Below, piece by piece: positions 121 to 61,342 of a stretch of DNA of 64,000 nt (its first letter is position 1; every line of letters starts with the position of its first letter). Location: assembly GCA_045837725.1 (NCBI GenBank), contig JBEWZL010000209.1, positions 558,001-622,000 on the forward strand, written 5' to 3'. The notes beneath the pieces were generated by a model, which saw only the letters and a program-made list of their open reading frames with translations, made no database searches and had not been told where the DNA came from. The position numbers were made by a program, and so were the translations under genes. Origin of the DNA: Vermamoeba vermiformis (taxonomy: Eukaryota).

Positions 121-1737
121 CTAGTTAGGTAACTTGAAGGCATAAAGACCAGCGAGAGCAGGGTTAGTGACAGGGACGCCATAGTAACCATATCCAGTAC
201 CAATGTAGATCGTGTCTTGAGAAACGGATGCGCCACCGTAGATGCCGTTGTTCAAAGTGGTCGTGTACAAGAGCTTGCCGTCAGACTTGCGCAGACCATA
301 GAGCGAGCCACCAGTAGAACCAACGACCACGAGCTCGTCCCAAACTGTTACGGGACCAAAAGCACCGCCGTTCGAGGAAACAAATTGCCAGTTTACGGCT
401 CCGGATGTTAAGTTGACGGAGGCCCAGAAAGGCAAATTCGAAAGAGAACCGTTGACGAGGGTGTATGATTTATACTGCGAGTTGAAGTTGGCAGTAAAGA
501 AGCTTTTGCCGTCAGATGCAGAGCCCCACATGCTTCCACCGACAATGCCTCCAGGACCAACTTGATTGGCCCAGATCTTTTGACCAGTTTCAGCATCAAA
601 AGCCCAGCTGATGCCAGATTTCTGCGAGACGAAGATCATATCGCGACTAGCACCGCCCAACGGATGCGCGACATCTCGAACCAAGATCGGAGCTTGAGCA
701 AAATCGGCGTCAGGACCAGGCTTGCCAGGGCAGTTAGCAGTGTTGGTGGGAGGGAAGCCAGGGTAACCGCAAGCAGCATTCCAAGCGTCAATAGGAGGAG
801 CAAAGTAAGACCAGCGAACAATGCCTGAATCCAAATCCAAAGCCAAGACGGAATTGGCGTGGTTTCCGTCTTCGTGGCAAGGCTCAGCGAAGATGTAGCT
901 GCGAATAGACTCGGTTTGGTTGATGCATTCGTTGATGCGGGCGGGAACTTGGTAGTTTTGGCTGGTACCAACATAAACTAATCTGCGATCGGTGTCGACG
1001 GCAGGCGAAGAGCCCCAAACAGCAGCACCAGAATAACCACCGACTTGATTGTTGTTGTCAGGCACGGTATATTGTTGCCATTGCTTAGCTCCAGTTTGCG
1101 CATCGAGTTTGACGACGCTGCCTCTGAAAGTGCAGCACGGGTAGCCTGGCTCAGCGGCAGCGGAGGTCTCGTGCGATGACACACCAAAGATAACACTATC
1201 TTCTACGACAGTAGGGCTTTGAGTGATGGTGGCGTTGAGATGCGCTTCCAAAAGGGTCTGCCAAACAAGATGACCGTCGTCCTTGTCCAAAGCGAAAGCA
1301 AATGCTCCACGACCAAGGCCAGGGAGAGGAGGAAATTGACTGCCAAAAATCAACAAGTCGTCGTAGATCACGGGGCTGTTTCTAGTCAAATAGTTTGGCA
1401 ATCCAAGAAGTTGAGGCACAGATGCGTTCCAGATTTGACGTCCGTTGCGATCAAGGCAGTAAATATTACCGCCAAAATCAGGGAAATAAATTCTGTTGCC
1501 GCGGACAGTAGGCGTGGCTGAAACTCCGACTTGAGCAGGGAAGAAAAATTGTTGCTCAAATTGCTTGACGGATGCACCATCGTTCAAGCCAGAGATATCT
1601 TGAGATTGATAGCGGTCGTTGAAAGGGTCCTTACCCCATCCATTCCAGTTCGGATCTTTCTTTGGTTTGTTGTTGCCAGCGAACGCGTTAGATGCAACGA
1701 GCAAAAACACAGCTAAAGCTACGAATTGTCTTTGCAT
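121..1737 (-). CDS. Secreted PQQ-binding beta-propeller protein, polyvinyl-alcohol-dehydrogenase-like family
   Basis: Intronless 538-aa ORF. It has a signal peptide, repeated PQQ-propeller motifs (ALDKDDGHLVW, KLDAQTGAKQW, ALDLDSGIVRW, AFDAETGQKIW), a vicinal-Cys motif YPCCTFRGS and GAAVWGSSP. Confidence 0.85.
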   Translation of the reverse strand: MQRQFVALAVFLLVASNAFAGNNKPKKDPNWNGWGKDPFNDRYQSQDISGLNDGASVKQFEQQFFFPAQVGVSATPTVRGNRIYFPDFGGNIYCLDRNGRQIWNASVPQLLGLPNYLTRNSPVIYDDLLIFGSQFPPLPGLGRGAFAFALDKDDGHLVWQTLLEAHLNATITQSPTVVEDSVIFGVSSHETSAAAEPGYPCCTFRGSVVKLDAQTGAKQWQQYTVPDNNNQVGGYSGAAVWGSSPAVDTDRRLVYVGTSQNYQVPARINECINQTESIRSYIFAEPCHEDGNHANSVLALDLDSGIVRWSYFAPPIDAWNAACGYPGFPPTNTANCPGKPGPDADFAQAPILVRDVAHPLGGASRDMIFVSQKSGISWAFDAETGQKIWANQVGPGGIVGGSMWGSASDGKSFFTANFNSQYKSYTLVNGSLSNLPFWASVNLTSGAVNWQFVSSNGGAFGPVTVWDELVVVGSTGGSLYGLRKSDGKLLYTTTLNNGIYGGASVSQDTIYIGTGYGYYGVPVTNPALAGLYAFKLPN

Positions 1738-3378
1738 GGCCTCGTCAAGTTGTTGATAAGCAGTTGTGGTGCACTACAAGGAGCTGAAAATAAGATTGAA
1801 TTGAGAATTAGTGCCGTATCACGTTCGTATTTATATCTTTTTCTTGATAAAATTTAAATTGACGTGTGTGCCCGTAACAAAAATAGAACCGACAGCGGAA
1901 TAACTATTGGAACGGTTTTAGGGTCTAGATCCTTTGTAGCTAGTCCTAATGCTAACGAACTTAACAATATCAAATTTGATTGCTACAATAAATCGATCGA
2001 TATACTCAATTTTTGCACATCAAGCATGTATTTCGTTAATATAGGCCCATATAATCCATTCGCAAGCTGTTGTAGAGTTAATTTGGTCCACTACGGCATG
2101 TTCCGGTTTTTCCGCTTTGACCGATGACAGGATCTCAAAGTAGCAAAAAGACATTTTATAGCCCGCGGAGTAACCGTTCGATAATCGATAGTAATTACGC
2201 CGCATAGTCATGCAAATGAATGATTAACAGCAAGCTAATGTGCATTGATTCATCGGCAAACTTCGAAACGGTTCACATCCGATACTCCGATTCGAGAGCT
2301 GACGGAGATTGACCAAACATATATATACATATGTTACTATATTAACTCAAGTCATATAGATAGATCTATGAGCCAGAAGCTTTGCATGTTTTCTTTCAAT
2401 TCATTTCAATGATTCACTTTAAATAAGCAGTGAAGAATTGCACGAAGTGCCGAAAATTAAAAGGATAGTGAATCATCTCTGCATATAAAGATCATATTAT
2501 GTGAACTGTAAATCAGGTTATAATCGACGGGTTCAAGTTTGTCACCAATCGTAGAAGCTTGAAATTACGACTCGGTTTAATTTCGAAATAAATTATTGTT
2601 CGCTCAGGCGAATAAAACAAATCTTGTCCTGAGATTGACACATCGGCCCGAGATCGGAACTCGCGCAAAAATTTTGTGCATTCGTTCGTACCGTAATTTG
2701 CATTAAAAATTATGGCGATAAACTTACCATGCCTGATATTGATTGAAATTTATGCTTTGTTTCATCGCCCTGACTTTCCCATCGAATTGTGCACGTGTGC
2801 AACAGAGGTACTGCAGAATATACTGGTAAATTAAATATTACGTTTTCTTTAATATTAATTAAGATAATTATAGAATTAAGTATTTATGAATCAAGGATAC
2901 TCATATCAATGCGCGAAATGCGGGCGCCAAATAATTAATTTTTTTAAAAATTCTGATTTAAGCTTCGTGCAGGCCAAAAATTTGAATACCAGCACAAGGC
3001 GATGATAATGTTTAAATGTTATCGAGCCAGCATTTAATTCGGATCAATTCTCGATGAGATTAGGTTGGAAAGAGATCAGCTCATTCTCACTTACGACAGT
3101 CCTTATAGCCATATCTTCTTGTCTTAAGCGTAAGTGCCATATTAATAACGTTCTTTTTAATTAACCTTCAGTTTTTTCAAGCGTAATGGATCCGAAGCTT
3201 TCGCAAGGCCGAGGGCAAGCAAAAATGGCGAAAGTTGTTATTGTAGGTAAGAAATATCTCTTGTTGTCTAAGATTATAAATTGTTCTTTACAAAATCCAA
3301 ACTCGCAACTTTCACAAAATACGGTTTTATTTGATTTTAGAGTATCGAGAGTTCTCTCTACGACTACATTGCACGATC

Positions 3379-5643
3379 TTAGGCTATGTTGACCTTCTCG
3401 ACGTAGAGCCTAATGTTGCAGGAAGTATCAACACCGCGTCCTGAACGGAAATACAACATTAATTTCTGTGAATTTTAATTGGTGGGATCTACTACTTACG
3501 CAAGCGCATGTAACCGCCTTCTCCCCACCAGCTACCCCAAGAGTTACGCACAATCCAGTAATCATGGCCAGTAGGTCCATCAGTACCGTAGCCAACAATG
3601 TTCACTGCGTGGTTAACAACGCCTTCGCAAGATCTGCCACCAGTCATTATGCCACCAGAGTAGCTGTAAAATCCGTATGGTACGTAGATTGCGACCGAAA
3701 GAACTCCTTCTTGGAGCTTGCTTATAATCGCAGCGTCGGTAGTCGGACTACCGTTGGATAATTTCGTGGATTCAGATCCGCGAACAACTCTTCCGATGCC
3801 TGAACTTGTTCTTCGGCAAGAACCCTTCGCATTTTGGTAAGGATAGTCAGAAGCATAAGCAACACCTCCGTTGCTGGCGGCAAACTGAAATGCTCCCAAC
3901 ATCCAGCCACCTAAATTTACTTTTTAGTACACGCTCGATTGAGTCTTTAAAATGTGATATAAAAATATACTTATTTATCAGCGAGAAAGGTTTTATAATT
4001 ATTATTGCATTACGTACCGTTGCAGGTATACTGTGAATCCGAGCAGTCGAGGAGTTGTTGAACAGACAATACAGGAGGGGGTGTCTGATACTTGATTGCG
4101 TAGTTGCTCTCGATTGAAGCAGCAGCACTATGAGCCCAGCAAGATCCGCAAGTTTGTTGATCTTTGATCGGACTCGAAAAGCCTTTGTCAGTCCAAGAGA
4201 ACTTGGAGCCAGTAGCAACAGGCGGAGATACAGGGGGAGATACAGGCACATCGGAGTCATAGCATTGCTGCACGATTTTGTAAACATTGTTGCGCCATCC
4301 GCCTCCGCACATCTGAGCGGGATTGCCCATACACGGCACATTGCAGTCAGATTCACTCGCCTGGCCGTAGTTACCAAATGAATTGCCACAGAAGCATTGC
4401 GAAGCGAATTGAACACCAGCCACGGTGTATCCTTGGCTCGAGCAGATCTGCACGCACATGTCAACTGTCATGTCAACCGAAAGTGTCACTGTGCCTGACA
4501 GATCACGATAGACATCATCGATGAAACATCCTTGATACTGAGGGACTTGAGTGCAAGTTGTGGTCTGGGCTTGAGCAGCTTGTATGCTGTAGATCGAGTT
4601 GCGATAATAACCACCGCATTGTTCGTAGGCATTACCGGCACAAGGAACGTAGCACTCGTAGTCTTGTACCTGGCCATATTGACCGTAAGAGTTGCCACAG
4701 AAGCATTGATTTCCGGCCTGAACTGCTGCGTACTTGAAGGCGTTGTTGCGGCAAGTTTGAACACAAAGTTCAACGGTCATTGCATAGTTGTAGAAATAAG
4801 CGCCCAAGAGGTCACGATAGTAGTAGTCAGCATAGCATCCCATGTACTGAGTAGATGGAGGTGCAGCGGAAAGACAAACGCCATTAGGACACTGTCACGA
4901 ACTTGGATCAGATCCGTTGCGTCTCACTGAGAATAAGTACGTACATCGGGGTTGCATGGAGGTCCGCATGTGACGGTCTTGCAGCCATCGGATACGCGAC
5001 CACAAGTAGCATTACCACATGGATTAAGTTGTGGGACACAAGTACTGTTGCTCGGTTGCAAGCCTCTGAAGTTACCACGAGGTGCCCAAGTGCAGTGCCA
5101 GTACTGACCAATCGTAGGACAGGTCACCATAGCACATCCTACTCGGTTACTAAGATGAAAAGTTGAACGTTAGTTGCGGACTTTAGATCTTCGAAGAAAT
5201 TTCCTTACGTTGACCACCAAACCATTTGAGTATAGTTCTTGGCTTTATAAGCATTGCCCAACTCACCAGCGTAGTTAACGTTTTCAGATTCCCAAGCCAA
5301 GAGCGCCTGAAGTTATTATAATTAACGTTTTATACTATCGCTTATTACGTACTTGTTCGTAAGTGAACTGCTTCTTATCTCCGGATACGATGAATGTTTG
5401 GCCACGGACACCGCGTAAAGATGGATCTAAGCCGACTTTGCACTGAGAGACCCAGTTCAAAGACTCTTGCTCCAACTTGTCGTCCCAAGTGATAGTCTTC
5501 ATATTAGCAGGTGGAGGAGTCACTCGAGCACGGATAGCGCCGATGTAATCTAAAATATTAGATTTATCGCTGGAGGCAATTTCGTTAGCTCCGCTGGCAA
5601 CCGTTACAAATAAAATTAGGCCTAAAAATAGTAGAGTACGCAT
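3379..5643 (-). CDS. Secreted multidomain protein: CAP/SCP domain + 2 WSC domains + papain-family (C1A) cysteine protease
   Basis: Spliced from ORFs 5335-5643, ~4924-5300, 4010-4843 and 3492-3902, plus a last exon ending TAA at 3379. CAP motifs: RARVTPPPANMKTITWDDKLE, GLCGQRYYTQMV. Two WSC repeats (GCY/F...MTVELC...C...YAAVQAGNQCFCG...C.G...CGG). Protease catalytic motifs: IKDQQTCGSCWAH, VNHAV, WIVRNSWG. Confidence 0.85.
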
Positions 5644-45603: not shown

Positions 45604-47239
45604 ATGGACCACGAAGAAAATAGCGACGAAACAGCTTTCCAAACGAGTTCGAGTGACATTGAAGATGACACGTGTCACCAAACGACTGCTGAGCGCGCCA
45701 ATACAAGCGCAGATCTGACGCAGTTATCGCATCGATCAGAAGGCACTGAGACTAGAAGAGTACTAAAACAGCCTTTATTGTTGAACAATAGTGACACGTT
45801 AAGAAGTGGCTCGGGAACTTCATCCGCTAACAGATCTGATGTGGAGCATGCGCGCCCGATTGATGATAGTGACGATCACAAGTACGCGGAGATTAATAAC
45901 CAAAAAAGGAAATATTTTCAATATATTCTGCGAGCCTACGAATACTCGAAGGGAAACATGCCTGCGTGGACCGAGAAAATGAACGCCATGGACTCGAAGT
46001 GGGGTCAGTGCCTCCGATTTATAGACGCCTTATTGCGTGGCGTTAGTCAGGTACTGTATTATCTACACCCTATCGCAGCGCAAAAGGAGCTAACAAATCT
46101 CTTACAGATCGGATTCGTAAACAGTCCTATTTTTGGCTTAGGAACGTTTCTAGTAGCGCTTTTCACCGAGTAAGTATAATTATCTATGTTTTTTACTATA
46201 GTCTATCAACTTCTATTCAAGTACGTGGATTGGACTCTGCGGCATGGTGGGCTGTTTGTGTACTTCCGTATTCGCGGTGCTGTTCAAACTGAACAAAGAA
46301 TCATTTAGGTACGGCATTACAATCCTATTTATTGGTAGTATAATTACGATCTAATGGCCAAGCAGGCTTGGATTATTTGGATTTAACGGGTATTTATTTG
46401 GTGCCTCGCTCGCGATCTACCTTTCAACTGCTTGGGATTGGCGGACAGTAGTATTAACCATTCTATTGGCGCCATTGACTATCGTGAGTCGCGATGGATT
46501 AATGATAACTTAACATTAGCTTACTCGATTTTGAACAGATCTTTCAACTTGGTATCGGCAATATTCTATCGCCCTATAATTGCCCACCATTCGGCTTACC
46601 GCTCTGTATAGTCGCCAATCTGCTATTTTTAGCACTCAAAAATGCCCAACCAAAAGTAGAAGCAGCTGTGGCTAATGCTGTTGCGGGGTACGAAATTCCA
46701 CACGATGCTTGGGACGCACCAGTATTCTTTCAATCGCTGGGCCGGTGCATTGCTTTAACGTTTTTCAAGCTCAATCCATGGTCGTAAGTTTTCAACAAAA
46801 CTAAACTTCAGTGAGTAAGATCTGTTTTTCTAGATCAATTGGCTTCGCCGCGTTGTTGCTTTTATATTCGCCCATCCATACACTGAACGCCGTTACAGGC
46901 TCATTAGTTAATACAGCCACTCTTTTTGTCCTCGGTGTGGATGAGGCTAAAATTGCCAACGGAGTTTTAGGCTGGAACTCGACTCTATTATGTAAGACCC
47001 ATCAATGCATGGTGCTGTTCACTAACGCCTATTTAATATTAGGCTTGATGCTAGCAGAGTTCTTCAAACACAGCTTGACTTCGTGGCTGTACGCCATCTT
47101 TGCCTCAATATTGACGACGTTGCTGCACGTGAGCATTGCGCCAATGTTTGCGGCGATTGGTTTGCCTGAAATCAGCTTGCCATACACTATCATTGGATAC
47201 TTATTCGTCATCTCAAGAGCGCTTGTGGTGCCAGATTGA
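45604..47239 (+). CDS. Urea transporter (UT/SLC14 family)
   Basis: FIDALLRGVSQ|IGFVNSPIFG, GLFGFNGYL, PPFGLPL; second repeat LGRCIALTFFKLNPWS, NGVLGWNSTL, LPEISLPY. This is the duplicated LP-box architecture of UT channels, with about 10 TM helices. Confidence 0.85.
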
Positions 47240-47496
47240 GTTGACCAAAAGCATTGCTCAACTCGCTAATTCTGAACCACAGCACGAAAGGAAACTGCGC
47301 ACTCCGCTAAGGCACTTCAACTTTGACTGACCAACGACATATATCGGAGGCAGGACGAGATTTGAACATGTCCCCAGCGGTAAATCCTCTGTTTGCTCGA
47401 GCATGCGATTTGCTAGACCATTATTATCAACCTAAATTTATTATTTATATATATTTCGCAAAATTCCTTGTCCGCGTGCGAGGACCTCATTCGTTC

Positions 47497-49475
47497 TTAT
47501 TCACCTTGGCCTTGAGAGAAGCTAGGCTTGCCGTTCATCAAGTACAAGTTCTCCATCTTGATAAAGTCGAAGCCAGCATTGCGAATGCGCATCAACAACG
47601 AGATGATCTGCGCGTGCTTGATGGGCTCACCAGTCACAGACTTGAATCTGCAGCGCCAGTGGTCAGTGCAGAAAGTCTCGGGGAAGCCGTTGGGCCAGAC
47701 TTTAACACCACGGTTGGTGATCAAAGTCAACTTCATGCCGTCACCGTTCAAACTCGAAATAGCAGTGCCCAAGTCTTCAGCAGTGCCGTTCTTGGGAGAC
47801 CAGTGCAAGAAGATGTCGCAACCGATCGTGTCCTTCTTGGCAGGAGGAACATCAGAGACAGTTGGGCGCCACTCCTTCATCGAGCTGCCGTCTCCCTTAG
47901 CGTAGTGCACGGGCTTGAGTTGAACTGGCTTCTTGCCAAGTCGTTCAATAACGGCCTAAAGTGCACGGTCAGCACAACTAGTAGATCTAGATCCGGAGCT
48001 CGTTCGACGTACCTTAGTGAACTCAGTGGTGCTGACCTTCTTCTTCGAGACACCCTCGCGATAAATATCAGGAGTGTGGAGACCGTCTTCAATGGTCTTG
48101 AGCCAAGCGTTGTGCACGTTCTCAGCTACATCAGGTTGACCAATGTGCGACATCATCATCACAGAGGACAGCAAGAGACCGGACGGATTGGCGACGTTCT
48201 TGCCGGCAATTGGGGGAGCAGAGCCGTGAATGGCTTCGAACATTGCACCGCCGTCACCAATGTTAACGGATCCACCGAGACCGACGGAGCCAGTCAATTG
48301 AGCAGCGACATCAGAGAGAATGTCACCGTACAAGTTAGGCATGACTACAACGTCAAACATTTCGGGGGTATCAGCAAGACGAGCAGCACCAATGTCGACG
48401 ATCCAGCGGTCCTTTTGGATGTCTGGGTAACGAGCACCAACTTCTTCAAAAACTGCACGAAAATTATTAAAATATTTCCTATTAATTATATAATTGATAT
48501 TAATACCTTTGTTGAACAAGCCGTCGGTCATCTTCATAATGTTGTCCTTAACGAAGCACGAAACTTTCTTGCGACCATGTCTACGTGCGTACTCGAAGGC
48601 GTATTGAATAATACGCTCGCAACCAGGTCTAGAGATGAGCTTCAAGCATTGAACGACTTGATCGCTGAATTTTTAAAATGGATTAGTCTAGATCTGAAAA
48701 TTAGAATTATCTGCTTACGTTTGCTGATGCTCAATTCCTGCGTATAAATCTTCCTCATTCTCACGAACAATAACAACGTCCATATTAGGGTGCTTAGTCT
48801 CGATGAATGGCGAGTACACATTGCAAGGACGAACGTTCGCGAAAAGGCCCAAAGTCTTACGGATCGTCACGTTCAAAGATTTGTAGCCACTGCCGATGGG
48901 TGTGGTAATAGGACCCTTCAACAAAACTTCATTGATGGTGAGAAAGGTATATTTTTAAAAATTTTAGTAATAATTTTACCTCGAGTTTTGCGGATCGAGT
49001 CCCAAGATGAAGGAGCAATGCCTGAAGAATGGCCCTAAAAAGGCGAACACGTTAGAAATGGATTCTTCCATGTTTCAGCGACGTACTGAGAGGTAGACCT
49101 TCTCTCCAACATCAATGTGGTCCCACTGAATTGCGGCGCCTGCTCGATCCAGAATTTCTACAGTAGAATTTGTGATTTCGGGACCTTTGTGGCTCTATTA
49201 GTACTCGTAATACGTAGCTGCGTAGCTTTTACATACCAATTCCATCACCTTTGGCAATTGTAACGGCCACCTAAAAAGATCGTTAAAAATAACAGCAGAT
49301 TGGATCTACTTTGGTTTACCTTCTCTCGCTGGGCAAACAACGAGGTTGAGAAAGAGCGAGAAGCGGTGTTCTTAGTAACGGAGTTCAGTGCTTTAACCAG
49401 TTAGATTACAAAGCGCTGCGAAAGTGGCGATTTTAACTTACCAGGCTTCGATTTGCTCAATACTTGACGCAACAT
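47497..49475 (-). CDS. icd: Isocitrate dehydrogenase, bacterial (Rickettsia/Thermus-like) type, with a mitochondrial-type presequence
   Basis: [11 protein letters not shown]...TASRSFSTS leader. [71 protein letters not shown]-terminal extension [10 protein letters not shown]...TDHWRCRF...KMENLY...FSQGQGE. Confidence 0.93.
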
Positions 49476-49944: not shown

Positions 49945-52900
49945 TTAATGCATGGTGTGAGTAGCGAGGTAATCGTCGTAGTTCTTGATGGGCATATCCT
50001 TGACGCGAGTCAATGCTTCGGCCAAGAAAGCGCAGACTTGCTCGTTGGTCAAGCAAGGAACACCAAAGTCAACGGACTTTCTGCGCAGATGGTAGTTGGA
50101 GATGTCTTCGTTGCGAGTAGGGAAGTTAATAACCAAGTCGAGCTTCTTTTGAGTGACCCAAGTGATGGCGTTGTTAGCGTCCTTTGAGCTGAGGTCGGGC
50201 TTGGAGAGCTCCGTGAATTTAACGTTATTCTTCTTCAACAAGGGGGCAACCTCCGGAGTGGCAAACAAAGTGTAACCGCCGCCGACCAAAGTTTGAGCGG
50301 ATTTGACGAACTCTTGGGTGACGTTGCCAGAGAGCAAAACGGTCTTTTGCTTAGTGGGCATCTTGAAGTAAGGAGGAACAGAGGTCATGGCCTTCAAGAA
50401 GGCTTCATACTTGTTCTCACCGAAGCAAGCGACTTCACCAGTGGATGCCATTTCAACACCCAAGATAGGATCAGCACCACCCAAACGTTGGAAGGAGAAT
50501 TGAGGAGCCTTGACACCGACGTACTTCAAGTCGCTGTTGCACTTGTAGTTAGGAGTGATCTTTTGACCCATGAAGACCTTGGTGGCAGTCTCGATAAAGT
50601 CAATGTCGTAAGTCTTGGAGACGAACGGGAACGAGCGAGAGGCACGCAAGTTGCACTCGATGACGAGGATCTCGTCGCCCTTGACCAAGAATTGAATGTT
50701 GCAAGGACCAGAGATCTCCAAGGCCTTGGCGATCTTGCTGCCCATCTCGAAGACGCGGCTCTTGACTTGTTGGCTCAAAGTGTCAGAAGGCAAGATCATA
50801 GTAGCATCACCAGAGTGAACACCGGCGTTTTCAATGTGCTCAGAGATGGCCCAGTTGACCATAGTACCGTCGCAGGCAACACCGTCAAGTTCAACTTCAC
50901 GAGCACCCAAGACGAACTTGGTAATGACAACAGGGTGGTCAGGGTTAACATCAGCAGCCATAGCCAAGTAGCTGACCAACTCTTCTTCGTTGGCAGCGAC
51001 GTTCATGGCGGCACCAGACAAGACGTAAGAAGGACGAATCAAGACGGGGTAACCGACCTTCTTGGAGAAGGACTTGGCCTCATCCATGGAGCTGAGTTCC
51101 TTCCACTCAGGCTGGCCGACGCCAATGCTGTCCAAGAGCTTAGAGAACTTGTAGCGATCTTCGGCTTGATCGATCTTGTGCGGGTTAGTACCGAGAACGT
51201 TGACGCCGTTCTTGTACAAAGGCAAGGCAATGTTTTGAGGTTGTTGACCGCCGACTGAGACGATGACACCGTTGGGGCTCTCACGATCGTGGATATCCAA
51301 GACACGTTCGAGAGACAACTCTTCGAAGTAGAGCTTGTCGGACTCGTCGTAGTCCGTGGAGACAGTTTCGGGGTTGTAGTTAACCATGATTGTCTTTTCG
51401 CCCATCTTGCGCAAGTTGCGAACGGCAGAAACAGCGCAGTAGTCGAACTCGACGGAGCTACCGATGCGGTAAGTACCAGAGCCCAAGACCATGACGCCAC
51501 CCTTGTCTTCGGGGATGTCGCTCTTTTGACCGTTGTAGGTCATGTACAAGTAGTTGGTCTTGGCAGGGAACTCAGCAGCCAAAGTATCGATTTGCTTGAC
51601 GACAGGAACGACGCCCATGCCCTTACGAACGCTACGGACTTCGAGTTCGTCGGCCTTGGCGTACTTGCCGATTTGCTTGTCGGAGAAACCAGCAGACTTG
51701 GCCTCACGCATGAGTTCACGAGGAATGTCAGTGACGTTGCCAATGCTGACAATGTTCTTTCTGATCTCCACAATGTGCTTCAACTTCTCCAAGAACCACT
51801 TGTCGATTCTGGTCAATTGCCAGATAGTGTCAACAGAGTAGCCTTGTTCCATAGCCTTGGCGATGGCGAAGATGCGGTTGGGAGTAGGGTTCTTCAACTC
51901 CTCGTCCATGTCGCCTTCGAACTTGGCTTCGAAGCCAGCGTTAGAAGGATCGACCATGCGGAGGGCCTTTTGCAAGGACTCTTCGAAGGTACGACCAACA
52001 GCCATGACCTCACCGACAGACTTCATTTGACTGCCGAGGAGAGGTGAGACGCGTTCAAACTTCTTCAAGTCCCAACGAGGAATCTTGGTGACAATGTAGT
52101 CCAAGCTAGGCTCGAAGCAGGCAGAGGTAGACTTGGTGACGCTGTTGGAGATTTGGTGCATAGGAATGCCGAGAGCAATCTTGGCGGCGACGAAGGCGAG
52201 AGGATAACCAGTAGCCTTGGAAGCCAAAGCGGAAGAACGAGAAAGACGAGGGTTGACCTCAATAACGCTGTATTCGAGGCTGTTGGGGTTGAGGGCGTAC
52301 TGAATGTTGCATTCACCGACGATGCCCAAGTGTCTGACGGTCTTGATAGCAGCAGTACGGAGCATGTGGTACTCTTCGTTGCTGAGAGTTTGAGAAGGAG
52401 CGACGACGATGGATTCACCAGTGTGGATACCCATGGGGTCGAAGTTCTCCATGTTGCAAACAGTGATGCAGTTGTCTTGAGCGTCACGAACGACTTCGTA
52501 TTCGACTTCCTTCCAGCCCTTCAATGACTTCTCAACCAAAATTTGAGGAGCAGAGCTGAGAGCACGAGAAGCCAAAGCTTCGAGTTCAGTGGGGTTGTTG
52601 GCAAAACCAGAGCCCAAACCACCCAAAGCGTAGGCGGCACGAACAATGACGGGGTAGCCGACCTTTTCAGCGGCTTCGAGGGCAGCCTTGACGGTGACGA
52701 CGGCCTCGCTCTTAGCGAACGGCTCACCAATCTCAGCGAGCTTTCTGTTGAAGAGCTCACGATCTTCAGTGGCCATAATAGAGTCGACGGAAGTACCCAA
52801 GACACGAACGTTGTACTTCTCCAAAATACCTTGGTGGGCCAATTCAACACCAGTATTCAAACCGGTTTGACCACCAAAACCAAGCAAAACGCTGTCAGGT

Positions 52901-54757
52901 TTCTGTTAACAGGCTAGGTTAGTACACGATCAACTGAACTCACTCAAACTAGTGAACTCACCTCGCGTTGAATAACGCCCTCGACCATTTGTGTAGTGAC
53001 AGGCAAGAAGTAGACTTTATCGGCAATACCCTTGGCGGTTTGGACGGTAGCAATGTTCGGGTTGATCAAGACGGTCTCAACACCTTCTTCCTTGAGGGCC
53101 TTGATGCACTGAGAGCCAGAGTAATCGAACTCTCCGGCTTGACCGATTTGCAGAGCACCAGAACCGATGATCAAAACCTTACGAGCGGTTTGAGTCTTAG
53201 CGGGTTGAGCGATGAGGTGAGTCTTGTTCTTGTAGTTGACGACAGTGTCGTAGAACTTGCCGAAGAGGTACTTGGTATCGTATGGGCCACCACGAGCTTC
53301 AGGGTGGAATTGAACGCTGAAGAAAGGCTTGGTCGCGTGCATGATACCTTCGTTGGAGCCGTCGTTTTGGTTAATGAAGTAAGGCTTCCAGCCAGCAGGC
53401 AAAGTTTGGTTGTCAACAGCGTAGCCGTGGTTTTGAGAAGTAATGTAGCATCGTCCGGATGTCTGATCCATAGCAGGTTGGTTTTGACCTCTGTTACCGT
53501 ACTTCAATTTGTAGGTATTGGCGCCAGCGGCGAGGGCCATAAGTTGGTTACCCAAGCAAATACCTGATAGCGGGTAATTAATACAAATTATTTGTGATTT
53601 TTAAAGTATAAATCCGCGTTTGCCACGGATCGAATCCCTTACCGAAAATAGGTTTTCCGATTTGATAAGCTTTCTGAATGTGAGAGATGGTAGCAGTGAC
53701 TGTAGCGGGATCACCAGGACCGTTGGAAATGAAGAGACCGTCGTAATCTTCGTTGGTAAAGTCGTAGTCCCAAGGCACAACTTTAACGGTAACGTCGCCC
53801 ATTTTGACGAGCTCTCTGATAATGTTGTACTTCATACCGCAGTCTACGGCGATGATCTTAAGCTTGCCATGGCCGTAAGTCTTGACTTCCTTGGTAGAAA
53901 CTTTCTCCACCAAGTTGCCGGAAAAGGCGCCTTCGAGATCGATATCTTGGTCGAAAACAATTTTACCAAGCATAACACCGCGGCTACGGAGCTTGCGAGT
54001 CAAGGCACGAGTATCGATTCCGCTGAGAGCGGGGATATTTTCGCTCTTGAGCCAGTCGCCCAAAGATCTTTCAGCTTGCCAGTGAGAGTAGTTCTCCGAG
54101 TAGTTAGAGACGAGCAAACCAGAAACATCTGTAGGAGAAGTGGATTAAGGAAAAAAAAAGTCTGGATCTTGTGGATTTGAAGTTCATGAACGGTTTAAAA
54201 TTAAACATAAATTTTTAGGCAACTAGGGCTTAAGGATACGAATTCGATCGGATTCGAAGTGCTTGAGAAGGCCAACTTCGTCTGTTTCGCGAAGAGGCAC
54301 ACCATAGTTGCCGACCAACGGGTAAGTGATAGTCAAAATTTGGCTCTTGTACGAAGGATCTGTAAGGGATTCAGGATAGCCGACCATACCGGTGTTGAAG
54401 ACGACTTCACCCTTCGTAGGGCGGTAGGCACCAAAGGAGGTACCTGCGAAGGTGGTTCCGTCTTCAAGGACCAAGTAGCCCTTCAAAAAAATTAAGTTAG
54501 CGAAACGGCGGATGAAAGCAAAAAGCTAAAAATAACCAATTTGTGTTTTTGTGAATGCGATCGTTTGCTTACCGGTTCGCCGTGACCATCCTTAGCCTTG
54601 GAGGCGTACAGACGCTTGCTGCCAACGGCGGTTTTCGGGTTTACAACCGCGGAGGATAGTTTACCAACTGCATTTATAGAAATTGTTATAATAATGAATG
54701 AGAATGCGTAATTAAGATTGAGCTCGTACCTGAAAGTTTTTGGATCGCGCGCAGCAT
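49945..54757 (-). CDS. Glutamine-dependent carbamoyl-phosphate synthase (fused small + large subunit) with a mitochondrial-type presequence, not CAD-fused
   Basis: Six exons. Leader [67 protein letters not shown] (catalytic Cys kept), [15 protein letters not shown], two ATP-grasp halves and an MGS-like tail. Stop at 49945 with no DHOase or ATCase domain. Confidence 0.97.
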
Positions 54758-55026: not shown

Positions 55027-57474
55027 ATGGCTGACGCTCGCAAAGAGATCTTCACTTCTATCGTTAACTCCACTCCTCGTCGTGTGGAGGAAAAACACTG
55101 GAACAACGCTAAGGAGTTCATCGAAACATTCGCCGACGAAGTGTTGACCGATGAGATCCTTCGCAACTTGGTTCCCGACTCCACTTGGAAAGCGTACCAA
55201 AAGGCTCGCCAAGATCCTCACCACGACATCGACGCTCAAACCGCGGACCAAATCGCCAACGCTATGAAGGAGTGGGCCTTGTCTAAAGGTAAGAATTTAA
55301 CGTTAGTTTTAGCTTTATTTCGGACAAAATCGATATCCATTTTTAGTGATCCAGATTTTAATATTAAAATTTAATTAGGTGCGACTCACTTTACTCACTG
55401 GTTCCACCCCATGACTGGCGCTACTGGCGAGAAGCATGACTCTTTCTTGAACTACTCTCGCAAGGACAACAAATTCATCATCGAGTTCAGCGGCCGCGAG
55501 TTGATTAAGGGCGAGCCCGACGCCTCTTCATTCCCTAGCGGTAAGTGCTTTATCGGGATTCAACCGTTTCACAATCTGCGACCTTGAGATTTGTTTACTA
55601 AGTATACTAAATTAGGTGGTGTACGCGTTACCTTCGAAGCCCGTGGCTACACTGTTTGGGACATGAGCTCTCCTGCCTTCATTAAACGCGGTGCCAACGG
55701 ATCCAGTCTCTACATCCCAACCGCTTTCTGCTCCTGGTAAGTTTCTGGATCGATCTACGTTTCGCATCTAAAAATGGAAACTTACAATTGCTGCAGGACT
55801 GGTGAAGCCCTTGATACTAAGACTCCTCTCTTGAGAGCCGAAGAAGCCATCTCTCGCGAATGCACTCGCTTGTTGAAGGTTATCGGAGAAACGGATGTGG
55901 ACTTCGTCCGCACTACTATGGGTCCGGAGCAAGAATTCTTCCTTATTGATCGTGGCTACTATCTTAGCAGACCCGACCTTGTTGCCGTTGGTCGTACCGT
56001 CGTTGGTGCCCCACCAAACAAGGGTCAAGAGAGCGAATATCACTATTTTGGCGCTATCGACCAAAGAGTATTGGCATGCTTGCAAGAGCTCGAAATTGAG
56101 TTGTGGCGATTGGGCATCCCCGTCAAGACTCGCCACAATGAGGTCGCTCCTTCACAATTCGAGATGGCTCCAATTTACGAAGGCTCGGTTATTGCCGCAG
56201 ATCACAACTTGTTGGCAATGGATGTGTTGCGCGAAGTTGCTGCTAAGCACGGACTTGCTTGCTTGTTGCACGAGAAGCCCTTCAGCTACGTTAACGGCTC
56301 TGGCAAGCACTTGAACTGGTCTCTTGAAACTAGCAAGAAGGAGAACTTGCTCGAACCTGGCGCTACTCCTCGCGACAACCAACGCTTCATTCTCTTCTTG
56401 GCCGTTATTCTCAGAGCTATTCACCTCCACGGCGAGATGCTCCGCGCTGTTATTGCAGTGCCGGGCAACACTCACAGATTGGGCGCCAACGAAGCTCCTC
56501 CAGTTATCATCTCCGCTTACTTGGGATCTGAATTGGATGCTGCTTGCAAGAGCGTTATGGCTGCTGACTCTGGTGCCGCCAACGGCAATGCTCAAAACGT
56601 TCTTCGCTTGGGCGTTTCTAACTTGCCTCCTTTGCCTCGCGATCCTTCTGACCGTAACCGCACTTCTCCTTTCGCCTTCACTGGCAACAAGTTCGAATTC
56701 CGTGCTTGCGGTTCTTCTCAAAACATCTCCTTCCCCATCACTGTGTTGAACAGCATCGTTGCCGACTCCGTTAGATACTTCGCTGACGAGATCGAGAAGC
56801 GTGTTGCATCCGGTACTGCTCGTGCTCAAGCCATCAACAATATCATCATTGAGGAGCTTAAGAAGCACTACACTGTTGTTTTCAACGGCAACGGCTACAG
56901 CGAAGAGTGGGTTGTTGAGGCCGTCAAGAGAGGTTTGCCCTTGTTGAAGACTGCCCCTGAAGCCTTGGCTGTTTGGGACAAGCCTGAGAGTCTCCGCATC
57001 TTCAAAGAACAAGGTGTTCTGAGCCACATCGAGGCCTCCTCTCGCTCGCTCATTTTGCACGAAGCCTTCTTCGAGAGCATGTTGACCGAAGCCCGCGTCA
57101 TGGTCGACCTGGCCTCCACTCGTATCACTCCTGCCGCCGTGAACTATCAAAGACAATTGGCTCGCAGCTACAACGACGCTTTGTCCGTCCTCAAGGACGA
57201 GAAGCTCTTCGTCAACCAAAAGAGCACTTTGTCTTCCGTCACTGCATTGCTGGAGAAGCTAATCCACGCTACCAACGAACTCCGCGAGATCCTCCACAAG
57301 GCTGAGGCTGATGTCAAGAAGACGGATTTCAGAAAGGCTTTGGCTGCTTGGTACGAGCCTGTCATGAGCACTATGCCCAAGGTTCGATCAGCCAGCGACG
57401 AGCTTGAGCAAATCCTCAGCGACGACCTCTGGCCTTTGGCTAAGTACAGCGAAATTTTCCTCACTAGCAAATAA
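55027..57474 (+). CDS. glnN: Glutamine synthetase type III
   Basis: Four exons. [119 protein letters not shown]. No presequence seen. Confidence 0.96.
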
Positions 57475-57900: not shown

Positions 57901-59726
57901 TTAATTTTTGTAGTTGGCAGGAATCATGTTGAGCAACTCTTGGGCGGTCTTGATGGAGCCAGCCTTGGAGGCAATGGTGCGGACAGTGTCGTAAGCAGAC
58001 TTGACACGGTTGTTATCGGCTTCGAGGACCTTCTTGTGTTCCTCCAACTCGCTGCGGAATTGCTTCAACATATCGGCAACAGCCTTAGGACCAGTACCAC
58101 CAACAGAGTTGTAAGTCATCATAACAGACTTCGGGTCGAGAACGCGTTGCAAATCTTCGCGAGAAGCCTTGATATTGTGCTTGTTGACAATGTGGTTGTA
58201 GCAGGCTTCGAAGTTCTTGAAGTTGTCCTTGGCGCGGTAGAGATCACCGACCAAGCTGCCGACAATATGGTGAGCCTCTCTGAAAGGAACGTTGTGCTTG
58301 GAGACCAAGTAGTTAGCAAGCTCGGTAGCATTGGCGAAGTTCTCAAAGGCGAGCTCGTTCATTCTCTCGGTGTTGATGGTGGTGGACTTGATGAGAGGAG
58401 GGATGACTTCAATAGCCTTGTTGATGATGTTCAAGGACTCGACGAGGATCTCCTTGTCTTCGTGGAAGTCTCTGTTGTAGCCAGAAGGCAAGCCCTTCAT
58501 CATAGTGAAGCCAGCGACCATCAAACCGTTGATGCGACCAGAGCGACCACGGAGCAACTCGAGAGCACCAGGGTTTTTCTTTTGAGGCATCATAGACGAG
58601 CCCATAGCGAAGCCGTCGTCGAGAGTGAGGGTTCTGAACTCGTAAGAAGACCAGAAGATGAATTCTTCGGCCAATCTGCTCAAGGTAGATTCCAAGATGG
58701 CGACAGCGCTGACGGTCTCGAGCATGAAGTCACGAGCAGAGGTAGCGTCCAAACCGTGAGGATGAACCTTTTGGAAGCCCATCAAACGAGTGGTGATTGT
58801 TCTGTTAATGGGGAATGAAGTGCCAGCAATAGCACCAGTGCCGAGAGGGTTTTGATCGGTAGTGTCGTACGCGCGCTTCAGACGTTCCAAGTCACGCAAC
58901 AAGATAGCGGCGTAGTGAGACAACCAGTAAGCAACAGAGATGGGTTGAGCGTGTTGAACGTGGGTGTAGCTAACCATAACTGTTTCCAGGTATTGCTGAG
59001 ATCGCTCCAAGAAAGTCTCGACGGCTTCAACAACGCGTCCTCGGAGCTCCAAGAGTCTGCGGCGAGCGTACAACTTAGAGTCCAATACGACTTGGTCGTT
59101 ACGAGAGCGGCAAGTGTGCATACGACCACCGTGATCCATGCCGATCTCCTTGATCAGACGAGCTTCGACGTTCATGTGCACGTCTTCTTGTTCGTGGCCA
59201 AGAGCCCACTTCTTATCAATCTATTTTAATTATTACGGGTAAGTAGGAGAATTTTTAAAATTAATTCATAAAAAATTAATCCAGTACTTACGAAGTCGTT
59301 TTGGAACTTTAGAAGAGCTGGCAAAATTGCGGCAGCAGCGGCAGGAGGGATAACTCCTTGAGCACCAAGCATGGTAGTATGCGCCAAGCTACCCCAGATG
59401 TCTTCAACGACCAAGTTGCTATCGACGGTGATGGATTCGGTCCATTTAAGGAGCGAAGTATCGACGTCTCTCGAGAAACGACCACCCCACAACTTGGTAG
59501 ATTTCTTCTCGCTGGCCAAAGGAGAGCTACTCCGAAAGGTATTATTAATACAGCCGTACTTAATTATCAACTATTCTTAAACTAACCTTGTGTGGAAGGA
59601 AGCCACGGGAGTTGCCTTGCGGGCCTCAGTTGCGAGGACAGGAGCAACAACGTTAGGCTTACGAGCAGCACGGGATACGGTTCTGCTAGTAGCAGAAGCG
59701 ACGCGGCGAGTGATTTGCGAAAGCAT
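57901..59726 (-). CDS. argH: Argininosuccinate-lyase-family enzyme with a mitochondrial-type presequence
   Basis: Three exons. Arg/Ser/Ala-rich leader MLSQITRRVASATSRTVSRAARK. KLWGGRF, EDVHMNVE, HTCRSRNDQV, YTHVQHAQP, GSSMMPQKKNP, GLPSGYNRDFHEDKE, PFREAHHIVG. Confidence 0.92.
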
Positions 59727-60006: not shown

Positions 60007-61342
60007 ATGTTGAAGAACGCAATTACTAAGGGTACGACCTCCGGCATTTGTTCGTTATAAATCCCGTACTAACGTCGATTACTTTAGGAGTTCAACTCTT
60101 ATCAAGCAACAGTGCTCGCAAATCTCCTTCTTTGGTTCGGGTATGCCTGGATCCACTAAGTTTATTTTTATTTCGATTTTAAGTTTTTATTTTTAAAAAT
60201 TAGGGTCTCGCTACAGCTTCGCCTCGCGTTGCCAGCTTGAAGGGCAAGAGCATTTTGTCTCATGCTCAGTTCGACAAGAACACTTTGGACGAGCTATTCG
60301 ATGTTGCCAAGTACCTCAAGAAAGTCGTGGATGAGAAGGGCGAAACCAACGATCTCGCTGGAAAATACATGGCTGCTGTCTTTTATGAGCCATCAACACG
60401 TACTACTTCTTCTTTCCAAACCGCTATGATGCGCTTGGGCGGAAAGGTTATTGGTGGTACGTACAATTTTCATTAATCGCAGTTTATTTAAGGGACGCGT
60501 TACTAACCGTTAAATGACCTAGTGAACTCTCAAGCTTCATCTGTTGCCAAGGGTGAGACTCTTCCTGACACTATTCGTGTTATGCAAAACTACGTGGATG
60601 CGATCGTTCTGCGCCATCCTGAGATGGGAGCCGCTGCTACCGCCGCTAAATGGTCCAGAGTACCTATCCTTAACGCTGGTAATTTTAATATTATTTTTAA
60701 CGCCCAAAGACTTTTCTAACAAAGATTTTAGGTGATGGTGCTAACGAACATCCGACTCAAGCTTTGCTCGATATGTTCTGCGTCAAAGAAGAGCTCGGCA
60801 AGCTCAATGGCTTGACTGTAACCATGCTCGGTGACTTGAAGGTACGTAGCTGATGTCGGCAGTAATGTACAGTCCTTGTAACATTTATTAATGGCTTGTT
60901 TCTCGCTTAGTACGGCCGCACTGTGCACTCGATGGCACCTTTGATGGCACACTACGGCATCAAGTTCAACTTGGTCTCGCCTCCTTCATTGAAGATGCCC
61001 AGCGAATACGTTACTTTGTTGAAGAGCAAGGGCGCACAAGTCACTGAAACTGAGGACCTCGAGAGCGTGTTGAAGTCCACCGACGTGTTATATGTGACTC
61101 GTGTTCAAAAGGAGCGCTTTGCTACTGAAGAAGAGTACAAAAAGGTCAAGGGTTGCTACATCATCGACCCTGCTCTCTTGTCTCGTGCTCCCAAGAACAT
61201 GCTCGTACTTCATCCTCTGCCTCGTGTCGATGAAATCACTCCCGAAGTCGACAGCGACAGCCGTGCTATGTACTTCAAAGAGCCTCGCTATGGTATGATC
61301 ATGCGCATGGCTCTCTTGCTCTCCGTTCTCGGTGGCAAATAA
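60007..61342 (+). CDS. pyrB: Stand-alone aspartate carbamoyltransferase with a mitochondrial-type presequence
   Basis: Six exons. Leader [98 protein letters not shown]. These are ATCase-specific; OTC's SMG and HCLP motifs are absent. Confidence 0.93.

Follow-up and report, generated by a model that had tools for sequence, protein, structure and literature searches.

The gene at 57901-59726 on the minus strand of a 64,000-nucleotide stretch of Vermamoeba vermiformis DNA (contig JBEWZL010000209.1, positions 558,001 to 622,000, called the window below) encodes a protein of the argininosuccinate lyase (ASL) family in which several normally conserved motifs are altered. The locus raises the question of whether an enzyme built on the ASL plan still acts on argininosuccinate or has taken up another substrate. 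The initial annotation proposed an altered substrate such as ureidosuccinate or guanidinosuccinate. The analysis presented here points, with a probability of roughly 45%, to a lyase that reversibly converts N-carbamoyl-L-aspartate (ureidosuccinate) to urea and fumarate by beta-elimination, with substrate and direction read from gene context only. Ureidosuccinate agrees with that context and remains unproven, while guanidinosuccinate is without contextual support.

By profile score the protein is an ordinary member of its family. The third exon alone scored 437.1 bits against the NCBIfam argH equivalog TIGR00838 (EC 4.3.2.1; cut-off 279.5), and the bacterial orthologue at locus L001 scored 506.1 bits. 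The length class is that of ArgH and delta2-crystallin, and the nearest solved relatives are the Thermus thermophilus and E. coli ASLs and the duck delta-crystallins (1e-81 to 1e-61). The domains Lyase_1 (PF00206) and ASL_C2 (PF14698) are both matched by the orthologues at L001, L156 and L174, and both are precomputed for P0004, a protein 96% identical to the lyase and its closest match in a large collection, whose 90% cluster includes a Vermamoeba vermiformis EukProt transcript. Other named relatives come from Stenamoeba, Stereomyxa, the malawimonad Gefionella and one metagenome-assembled genome (MAG) labelled "Myxococcales bacterium". The catalytic set, namely RSRND of C1, the Thr-His pair of xYTHxQ in C2, the Ser, Lys and Asn of the GSSxMPQKKNP loop and the Glu that follows, is invariant in a 14-sequence alignment of the clade and present in the window, so that the elements on the fumarate side are intact, as had been claimed. 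All of the motifs quoted earlier were found in place by reading the sequence on the minus strand: HTCRSRND at 59118-59095, MVSYTH at 58977-58960, HGLDATSARD at 58758-58729, GSSMMPQKKNP at 58602-58570 and YNRDFHEDKE at 58479-58450.

Comparison of 89 clade rows with 103 canonical ArgH sequences identified 15 alignment columns in which each group carries a different near-fixed residue. Numbered as in duck delta2-crystallin (via a +75 offset), these include Gln328 to His in YN.D.QED (His in 99% of the clade, Gln in 103/103 canonical sequences), Asn230 to His in N..DA.S.RD, the HGLD of the window (His 96%, Asn 100%), Thr281 to Met before GSS (Met 100%, Thr 98%), Asp293 to Gly after KKNP (Gly and Asp each 100%), Arg165 to His in THxQR, Leu321 to Ser before YN, and Leu109 to Met. 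Four residues that canonical ArgH keeps constant away from the fumarate side, namely Gln, Asn, Thr and Asp, are thus replaced in the clade, and five of the changes listed fall within the three signature regions that form the shared active site. The initial annotation had picked out the two replacements by His correctly, while two other deviations on its list do not discriminate between the groups, since canonical sequences carry HTG or HTA and YNRD is common among them; the changes of Thr and Asp that flank GSSxMPQKKNP, of Arg in THxQR and of Leu before YN had been missed. The Tyr323-Lys331 region is presumably the part that binds the arginine end of the substrate. The passages of PMC12818424 that were consulted contain no list of arginine-contacting residues. 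Among 123 proteins (120 database matches and three fragments of our own), HTCRSRND was found in 86, HTTRSRND in 19, HTGRSRND in three and HTARSRND in one, with no match in 14; YNRDFHEDKE was present in 81 of the 123.

The proposal that proteins with these motifs form a clade was borne out by a FastTree phylogeny of 107 rows, reduced from 164 by discarding any row with over 85% identity to one retained and omitting database proteins (P-numbered) shorter than 480 aa. The 89 clade rows separated from 18 canonical ArgH rows, the latter a random draw, with local support of 99. The lyase is 36-44% identical to canonical ArgH and, like the rest of the clade, carries a C-terminal extension of ~50 aa. 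Amoeba and myxobacterial members of the clade are 65-68% identical to each other. Judged by these residues and this tree, the altered motifs are the mark of a distinct and old ASL subfamily, here named ASL*, rather than of drift. The backbone within the ASL* clade is weakly supported, a leaderless bacterial group is nested among rows that bear N-terminal leaders, and a second bacterial group, with a DYHE motif, is basal; transfer between bacteria and eukaryotes may therefore have run in either direction.

Gene neighbourhood also separates the two groups. Scanning of metagenome contigs with the clade alignment gave 74 loci, 30 of which belong to the clade with a flank of 1 kb or more on one side and were used for counting. 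A carbamoyl phosphate synthetase (CPS) and/or a paralogue of aspartate carbamoyltransferase (ATCase) adjoins the lyase in 20 of these 30, and argG or argF in none. At canonical argH loci, mostly from Bacillota, Nitrospirota and Myxococcota, argG or argF was present in 62/72, carB in 7/72 and an ATCase gene in 0/72. The association with arginine genes that characterizes argH is thus missing from the clade loci, and the counts favour the idea that the lyase keeps company with a pyrB-type gene rather than with argG. No gene for ornithine carbamoyltransferase (OTC), argininosuccinate synthase (ASS) or arginase was found in any locus with the CPS-lyase-ATCase module.

A colinear carA-carB-lyase-ATCase order was observed at L001, L126, L134, L148, L156, L158, L169 and L170, and this operon recurs in subclades only 47-50% identical, on both low- and high-GC contigs. 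At L156, on a Bacteroidota-like contig, an aminotransferase gene stands between carB and the lyase. Eukaryote-like contigs show other arrangements: an ATCase-like gene, a fused CPS of 1743 aa and the lyase at L132; the lyase with a fused CPS at L145; a presequence-bearing CPS head-to-head with an intron-containing lyase gene at L176; and, at L128, a contig of low GC, an ATCase-like gene and the lyase near a mitochondrial-carrier-family gene (4502-5437) that was identified by its N-terminal sequence only. At L001, L148 and L158 the ATCase paralogue shares its contig with an ordinary pyrR-pyrB pair of the HPGPINR type, which marks the paralogue as an extra enzyme and not the pyrimidine one. By sequence comparison, then, all three enzymes of the module are divergent paralogues of housekeeping enzymes, and their genes stay linked. 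This conserved neighbourhood makes it plausible, at not quite even odds, that ASL* works in connection with carbamoyl phosphate and aspartate carbamoyltransferase and not in arginine synthesis.

Among the matches listed from prokaryote genomes taken one per species, the sole close relative is L001, on contig C14 of a 3.4-Mb MAG (G001). The gene order there is nadE, carA, carB, the ASL-like gene, an ATCase-family gene (360 aa), pyrR, pyrB, a two-component pair and a type III glutamine synthetase (GSIII). The same MAG carries a second argH-family gene within an argC-argJ-argG-argH-argF cluster on contig C30, the product of which is 36% identical to the window lyase, and a second carB (L190, contig C8) of the E. 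coli type. The two carB products are 41.5% identical to each other and belong to different types: for the module copy (4670-7996 of L001) the score was 1130 bits against human mitochondrial CPS1 but 868 against E. coli CarB, and for the second copy 770 and 1294, respectively. The CPS1-like character of the bacterial module carB is a hint that either the module as a whole has moved between eukaryotes and bacteria or the CPS1 type has its root in bacteria. Genomes with the module numbered at least 1/301 in the order, at least 1/401 in the phylum and at least 1/61 among the relatives sampled, with G001 the sole carrier found; the 301 include one unpublished genome (G124), which bears on no claim made here. 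The MAG is labelled Nannocystis exedens, a doubtful and perhaps loose label (~0.58 GC, 3.4 Mb).

In the window the module is part of a cluster of ~16 kb (45.6-61.3 kb) with the order UT-family urea transporter (+), isocitrate dehydrogenase (-), CPS (-), GSIII (+), lyase (-) and ATCase-like gene (+). The ATCase-like gene lies head-to-head with the lyase at 60007-61342 (+) and encodes 342 aa, including a basic leader of ~38 aa, in six exons (60007-60030, 60087-60139, 60203-60455, 60522-60677, 60731-60839 and 60909-61342) that match TIGR00670; all five introns were confirmed in RNA contigs. The stretch 60249-61333 (+) shares 34-41% identity with the L001 module ATCase, compared with 29% for pyrB and 20-26% for argF, and the best solved relative of the paralogue is the Pyrococcus ATCase. 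The motifs STRT, RHP, NAGDG..HPTQ, GRT.HS, TR.Q.ERF and HPLPR, which comprise all of those for carbamoyl phosphate and aspartate, are retained. Because these ATCase motifs are all intact, the product of the paralogue should be N-carbamoyl-L-aspartate.

The CPS gene at 49945-54757 (-) is a carA-carB fusion of the eukaryotic, CPS1-like type (1197 bits to CPS1 and 799 to E. coli CarB). It retains the glutaminase Cys, His and Glu, and its stretch 54474-49963 (-) is 53% identical over 993 aa to the module carB of L001. Two short 5' exons, tentatively assigned, would add a basic N-terminal extension of ~41 aa. Basic, presequence-like extensions of this sort are common to the CPS, lyase and ATCase-like proteins. 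GSIII is encoded in several exons at 55027-57474 (+), and its L001 counterpart aligns to 55378-57462 (+); the protein begins MADARKE, and no leader was seen at its N-terminus. The urea transporter gene occupies 45604-47239 (+), with several introns and with exons colinear on positions 28-240 of PF03253. A Pfam scan of the long frames of the window placed the domain at 46805-47236 (E = 3e-15), and three upstream exons are colinear on profile positions 28-178. The transporter gene sits two genes from CPS.

Carbamoyl-aspartate is a candidate substrate for ASL* because N-substituted aspartates are the substrate class of lyases of the ASL and adenylosuccinate lyase types. Adenylosuccinate lyase (PurB), of the same superfamily, takes fumarate off an aspartate bound through its nitrogen to a carbonyl carbon when it cleaves succinylaminoimidazole carboxamide ribotide (SAICAR) to aminoimidazole carboxamide ribotide (AICAR); the nitrogen that leaves belongs to a carboxamide and is much like that of urea, and this is the closest chemical precedent for the cleavage of carbamoyl-aspartate to urea. 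PurB itself is a distant paralogue outside the clade that acts on nucleotide substrates, and the window lyase scored 76 bits against TIGR00928.

In the proposed pathway, GSIII would make glutamine, from which a mitochondrial glutamine-type CPS would form carbamoyl phosphate. The ATCase paralogue would join this to aspartate, ASL* would split the resulting carbamoyl-aspartate into urea and fumarate, and the UT transporter would carry the urea. Fumarate would be recycled to aspartate by the successive action of fumarase, malate dehydrogenase and a transaminase. The same chemistry run in reverse, with urea and fumarate giving carbamoyl-aspartate to feed pyrimidine synthesis, is a further possibility. 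As a tentative wider proposal, diverse protists and some bacteria may possess an ornithine-free, two-enzyme "aspartate-fumarate urea cycle", encoded by a mobile module common to bacterivorous amoebae and myxobacteria-like predators.

The proposed route resembles the classical ornithine-urea cycle in its CPS1-like CPS, in aspartate as the second nitrogen donor, in a fumarate-releasing lyase and in urea as the product, and glutamine synthetase and a urea transporter are both present in the window. It differs in that ATCase stands where OTC and ASS would be, and it needs neither an ornithine carrier nor the ATP spent by ASS. A glutamine-type CPS with a motif-intact ATCase would also make carbamoyl-aspartate in the manner of CAD or carAB-pyrB. 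Unlike those systems, the module occurs at bacterial loci that already possess an adjoining pyrR-pyrB pair and, in G001, alongside an ordinary second carB elsewhere in the genome; it also lacks dihydroorotase, apart from a dihydroorotase-like gene at L120.

The strongest alternative, itself unlikely, is that the lyase is a true ASL serving an ornithine-urea or arginine pathway in mitochondria, with OTC, argininosuccinate synthase and arginase encoded elsewhere and an ATCase neighbour that merely shares carbamoyl phosphate. The TIGR00838 score and the intact catalytic residues are those of an ASL, the adjoining CPS is of the type found in urea cycles, and glutamine synthetase and a urea transporter suit a classical cycle equally well. 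Against this stand the count of argG or argF neighbours (none in 30 clade loci, 62 of 72 canonical ones), the presence in G001 of an argH already placed in an arginine cluster, and the 15 near-fixed class-specific residues, above all His in place of a Gln that is universal in the canonical set. The linkage to a second, intact ATCase is also maintained both in bacteria and on several eukaryote-like contigs. Finally, the canonical signature is present in each of the 30 long or fused ASL forms found, fusions of argininosuccinate synthase with the lyase among them, and no fusion of a clade-type protein with that or any other enzyme was seen in this set, a result that counts as weak evidence by the tool's own warning.

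A different lyase role within the module is distinctly improbable. The enzyme could be aspartase-like, making aspartate for ATCase from fumarate and ammonia, or could act on another N-substituted aspartate such as guanidinosuccinate. The superfamily is shared with aspartase, the linked ATCase needs aspartate, and the family is known to shift substrate: XcbC and XcbD (NF052535 and NF052536) are ASL-family paralogues that NCBIfam names for non-arginine reactions in coenzyme M synthesis. The lyase is not a member of either, its scores of 223 and 55 bits lying far below the cut-offs of 575 and 600. An aspartase would, however, be redundant with the aminotransferase of the L156 operon, nothing in the neighbourhood makes guanidino compounds, and the leaving-group side of the active site is altered, not removed. 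That the clustering is a functionally meaningless relic of a single horizontal transfer event, whether a bacterial operon was passed on or a eukaryotic cluster entered bacteria, with the lyase a redundant or decaying paralogue, is very improbable: the module seems rare in the reference genomes sampled and amoeba and myxobacterial proteins are 68% identical, but the linkage holds between subclades only 47-50% identical, in varied gene orders, in bacteria of high and of low GC and on eukaryote-like contigs whether or not they contain introns, the catalytic and class-specific residues are near-invariant, and codon-level conservation and long open frames speak against decay.

Several observations weigh against the carbamoyl-aspartate lyase reading. 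ASL* retains all of the catalytic residues and many others conserved in true ASLs, and it passes the argH equivalog cut-off. A urea transporter, CPS, glutamine synthetase and ASL would also be expected of a classical ornithine-urea cycle, so the transporter does not discriminate between the two; moreover, none was found near the other module loci, and neither a urea transporter nor urease was found in G001, an incomplete MAG. It is not obvious why bacteria would make urea. The coexistence of both lyase types is known from this one MAG, the contigs of which are possibly derived from two organisms, although their GC contents are similar (0.57-0.61). Ten of the 30 clade loci have no module neighbour. 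Two of these, L120 and L122, are mutually identical and carry the lyase followed by a dihydroorotase-like amidohydrolase and pyrR-pyrB; the others are L129, L131, L141, L149, L155, L160, L178 and L188, most of them with short flanks. At L129, a eukaryote-like contig of low GC, the gene next after the lyase encodes a type II glutamine synthetase (2423-3562), identified by its N-terminal sequence only.

In the gene model of the window lyase, exon 1 (59726-59587) contains the ATG at 59726 and 46 codons that specify a presequence-like leader, basic and poor in acidic residues. After intron 1 (59586-59527, 60 nt, GT..AG), exon 2 (59526-59292) encodes the end of the leader, KKSTKLWGGRF and the N-terminal domain. 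Intron 2 (59291-59221, 71 nt, GT..AG) precedes exon 3 (59220-57901), which comprises 439 codons and a TAA stop and encodes the catalytic core, the class-specific motifs and the C-terminal extension. Exons joined by these coordinates form an open frame of 564 aa, and the exon 2/3 join (LLKFQNDF|IDKKW) agrees with full-length transcriptome homologues. One finding qualifies this model: neither of the two sense introns was seen in the RNA contigs of two runs (X1 and X2), where the GT..AG joints that cross the lyase gene are instead those of the plus strand. In X18, from a diverged relative, two reads skip approximately the position of intron 1 with the frame kept; X18 and X19 represent this relative with only 20 and 12 reads. 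With the sense introns unseen in X1 and X2, support for the leader exon comes from the open spliced frame, the homologues and the two reads from the relative.

The 58 residues ahead of LWGGRF contain 6 Arg, 5 Lys, no Asp, 2 Glu, 9 Ser, 7 Thr and 10 Ala, with a net charge of +9. Bacterial orthologues have no such basic, acid-poor extension and begin MS(N/T)KLWGGRF. All 18 of the extended homologues tabulated carry N-terminal extensions of 28-52 aa with net charges of +4 to +12, so the leader described in the initial annotation is real and common to the eukaryotic members. Its presequence-like character suggests that the lyase is targeted to mitochondria.

In the literature searched, which lay mostly outside subscription journals and included no supplements, no paper was found on a carbamoyl-aspartate or ureidosuccinate lyase, on this clade or on such a cluster, nor was there a relevant one on amoebal urea cycles or on an argH paralogue beside carAB/pyrB. 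The parts consulted of the text accompanying the ASL tree of Horák et al. 2020 (PMC7542463) make no mention of Amoebozoa or myxobacteria; its supplements might show the clade.

Cleavage of carbamoyl-aspartate by ASL* would be a new enzyme activity. It would provide a second route to urea, much shorter than the Krebs-Henseleit cycle, with less ATP and no ornithine carrier, and would bear on nitrogen excretion in bacterivores. Because the bacterial module has a eukaryote-type CPS, it would also bear on the origin of CPS1-type synthetases. Annotations as "argininosuccinate lyase" in protist and metagenome data would need rereading, every member of the clade seen so far having been automatically so named. 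Conserved metabolic gene clusters are rare in eukaryotes, and a cluster of CPS, ASL-like and ATCase-like genes that persists across bacteria and several eukaryote lineages would be unusual even if the lyase proved to be an ordinary ASL.

Some minor features were recorded beside these. The plus-strand joint at 59239-59312 (GT..AG) is present in both X1 and X2 and that at 58927-58989 (GT..AG) in X1 only; read in the sense frame of the lyase, one leads to stops and the other removes 21 codons including SYTHVQHAQP. These joints look like spliced antisense RNA, perhaps derived from GSIII read-through or from a long 5' UTR of the ATCase-like gene. In the basal bacterial subclade, the module is followed at L169 (12347-13739) and L174 (3546-5441) by a GTP cyclohydrolase II-family gene and a short-chain dehydrogenase, a pairing that we take to resemble the yeast URC uracil-to-urea pathway, and at L174 also by a SLOG/LOG-like gene. 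The isocitrate dehydrogenase gene between the urea transporter and CPS (47497-49400, -) contains PF18324, the "bacterial isocitrate dehydrogenase C-terminal domain", and may be of bacterial origin although the surrounding DNA is inferred to be nuclear and amoebozoan; the long plus-strand frame at 47311-48744 is its antisense shadow. Elsewhere in the window, most of the other long frames at 5-45 kb have no Pfam match, while a papain-family cysteine protease with two WSC domains is encoded at 3495-4894 (-) and a PQQ-like beta-propeller protein at 124-1773 (-).

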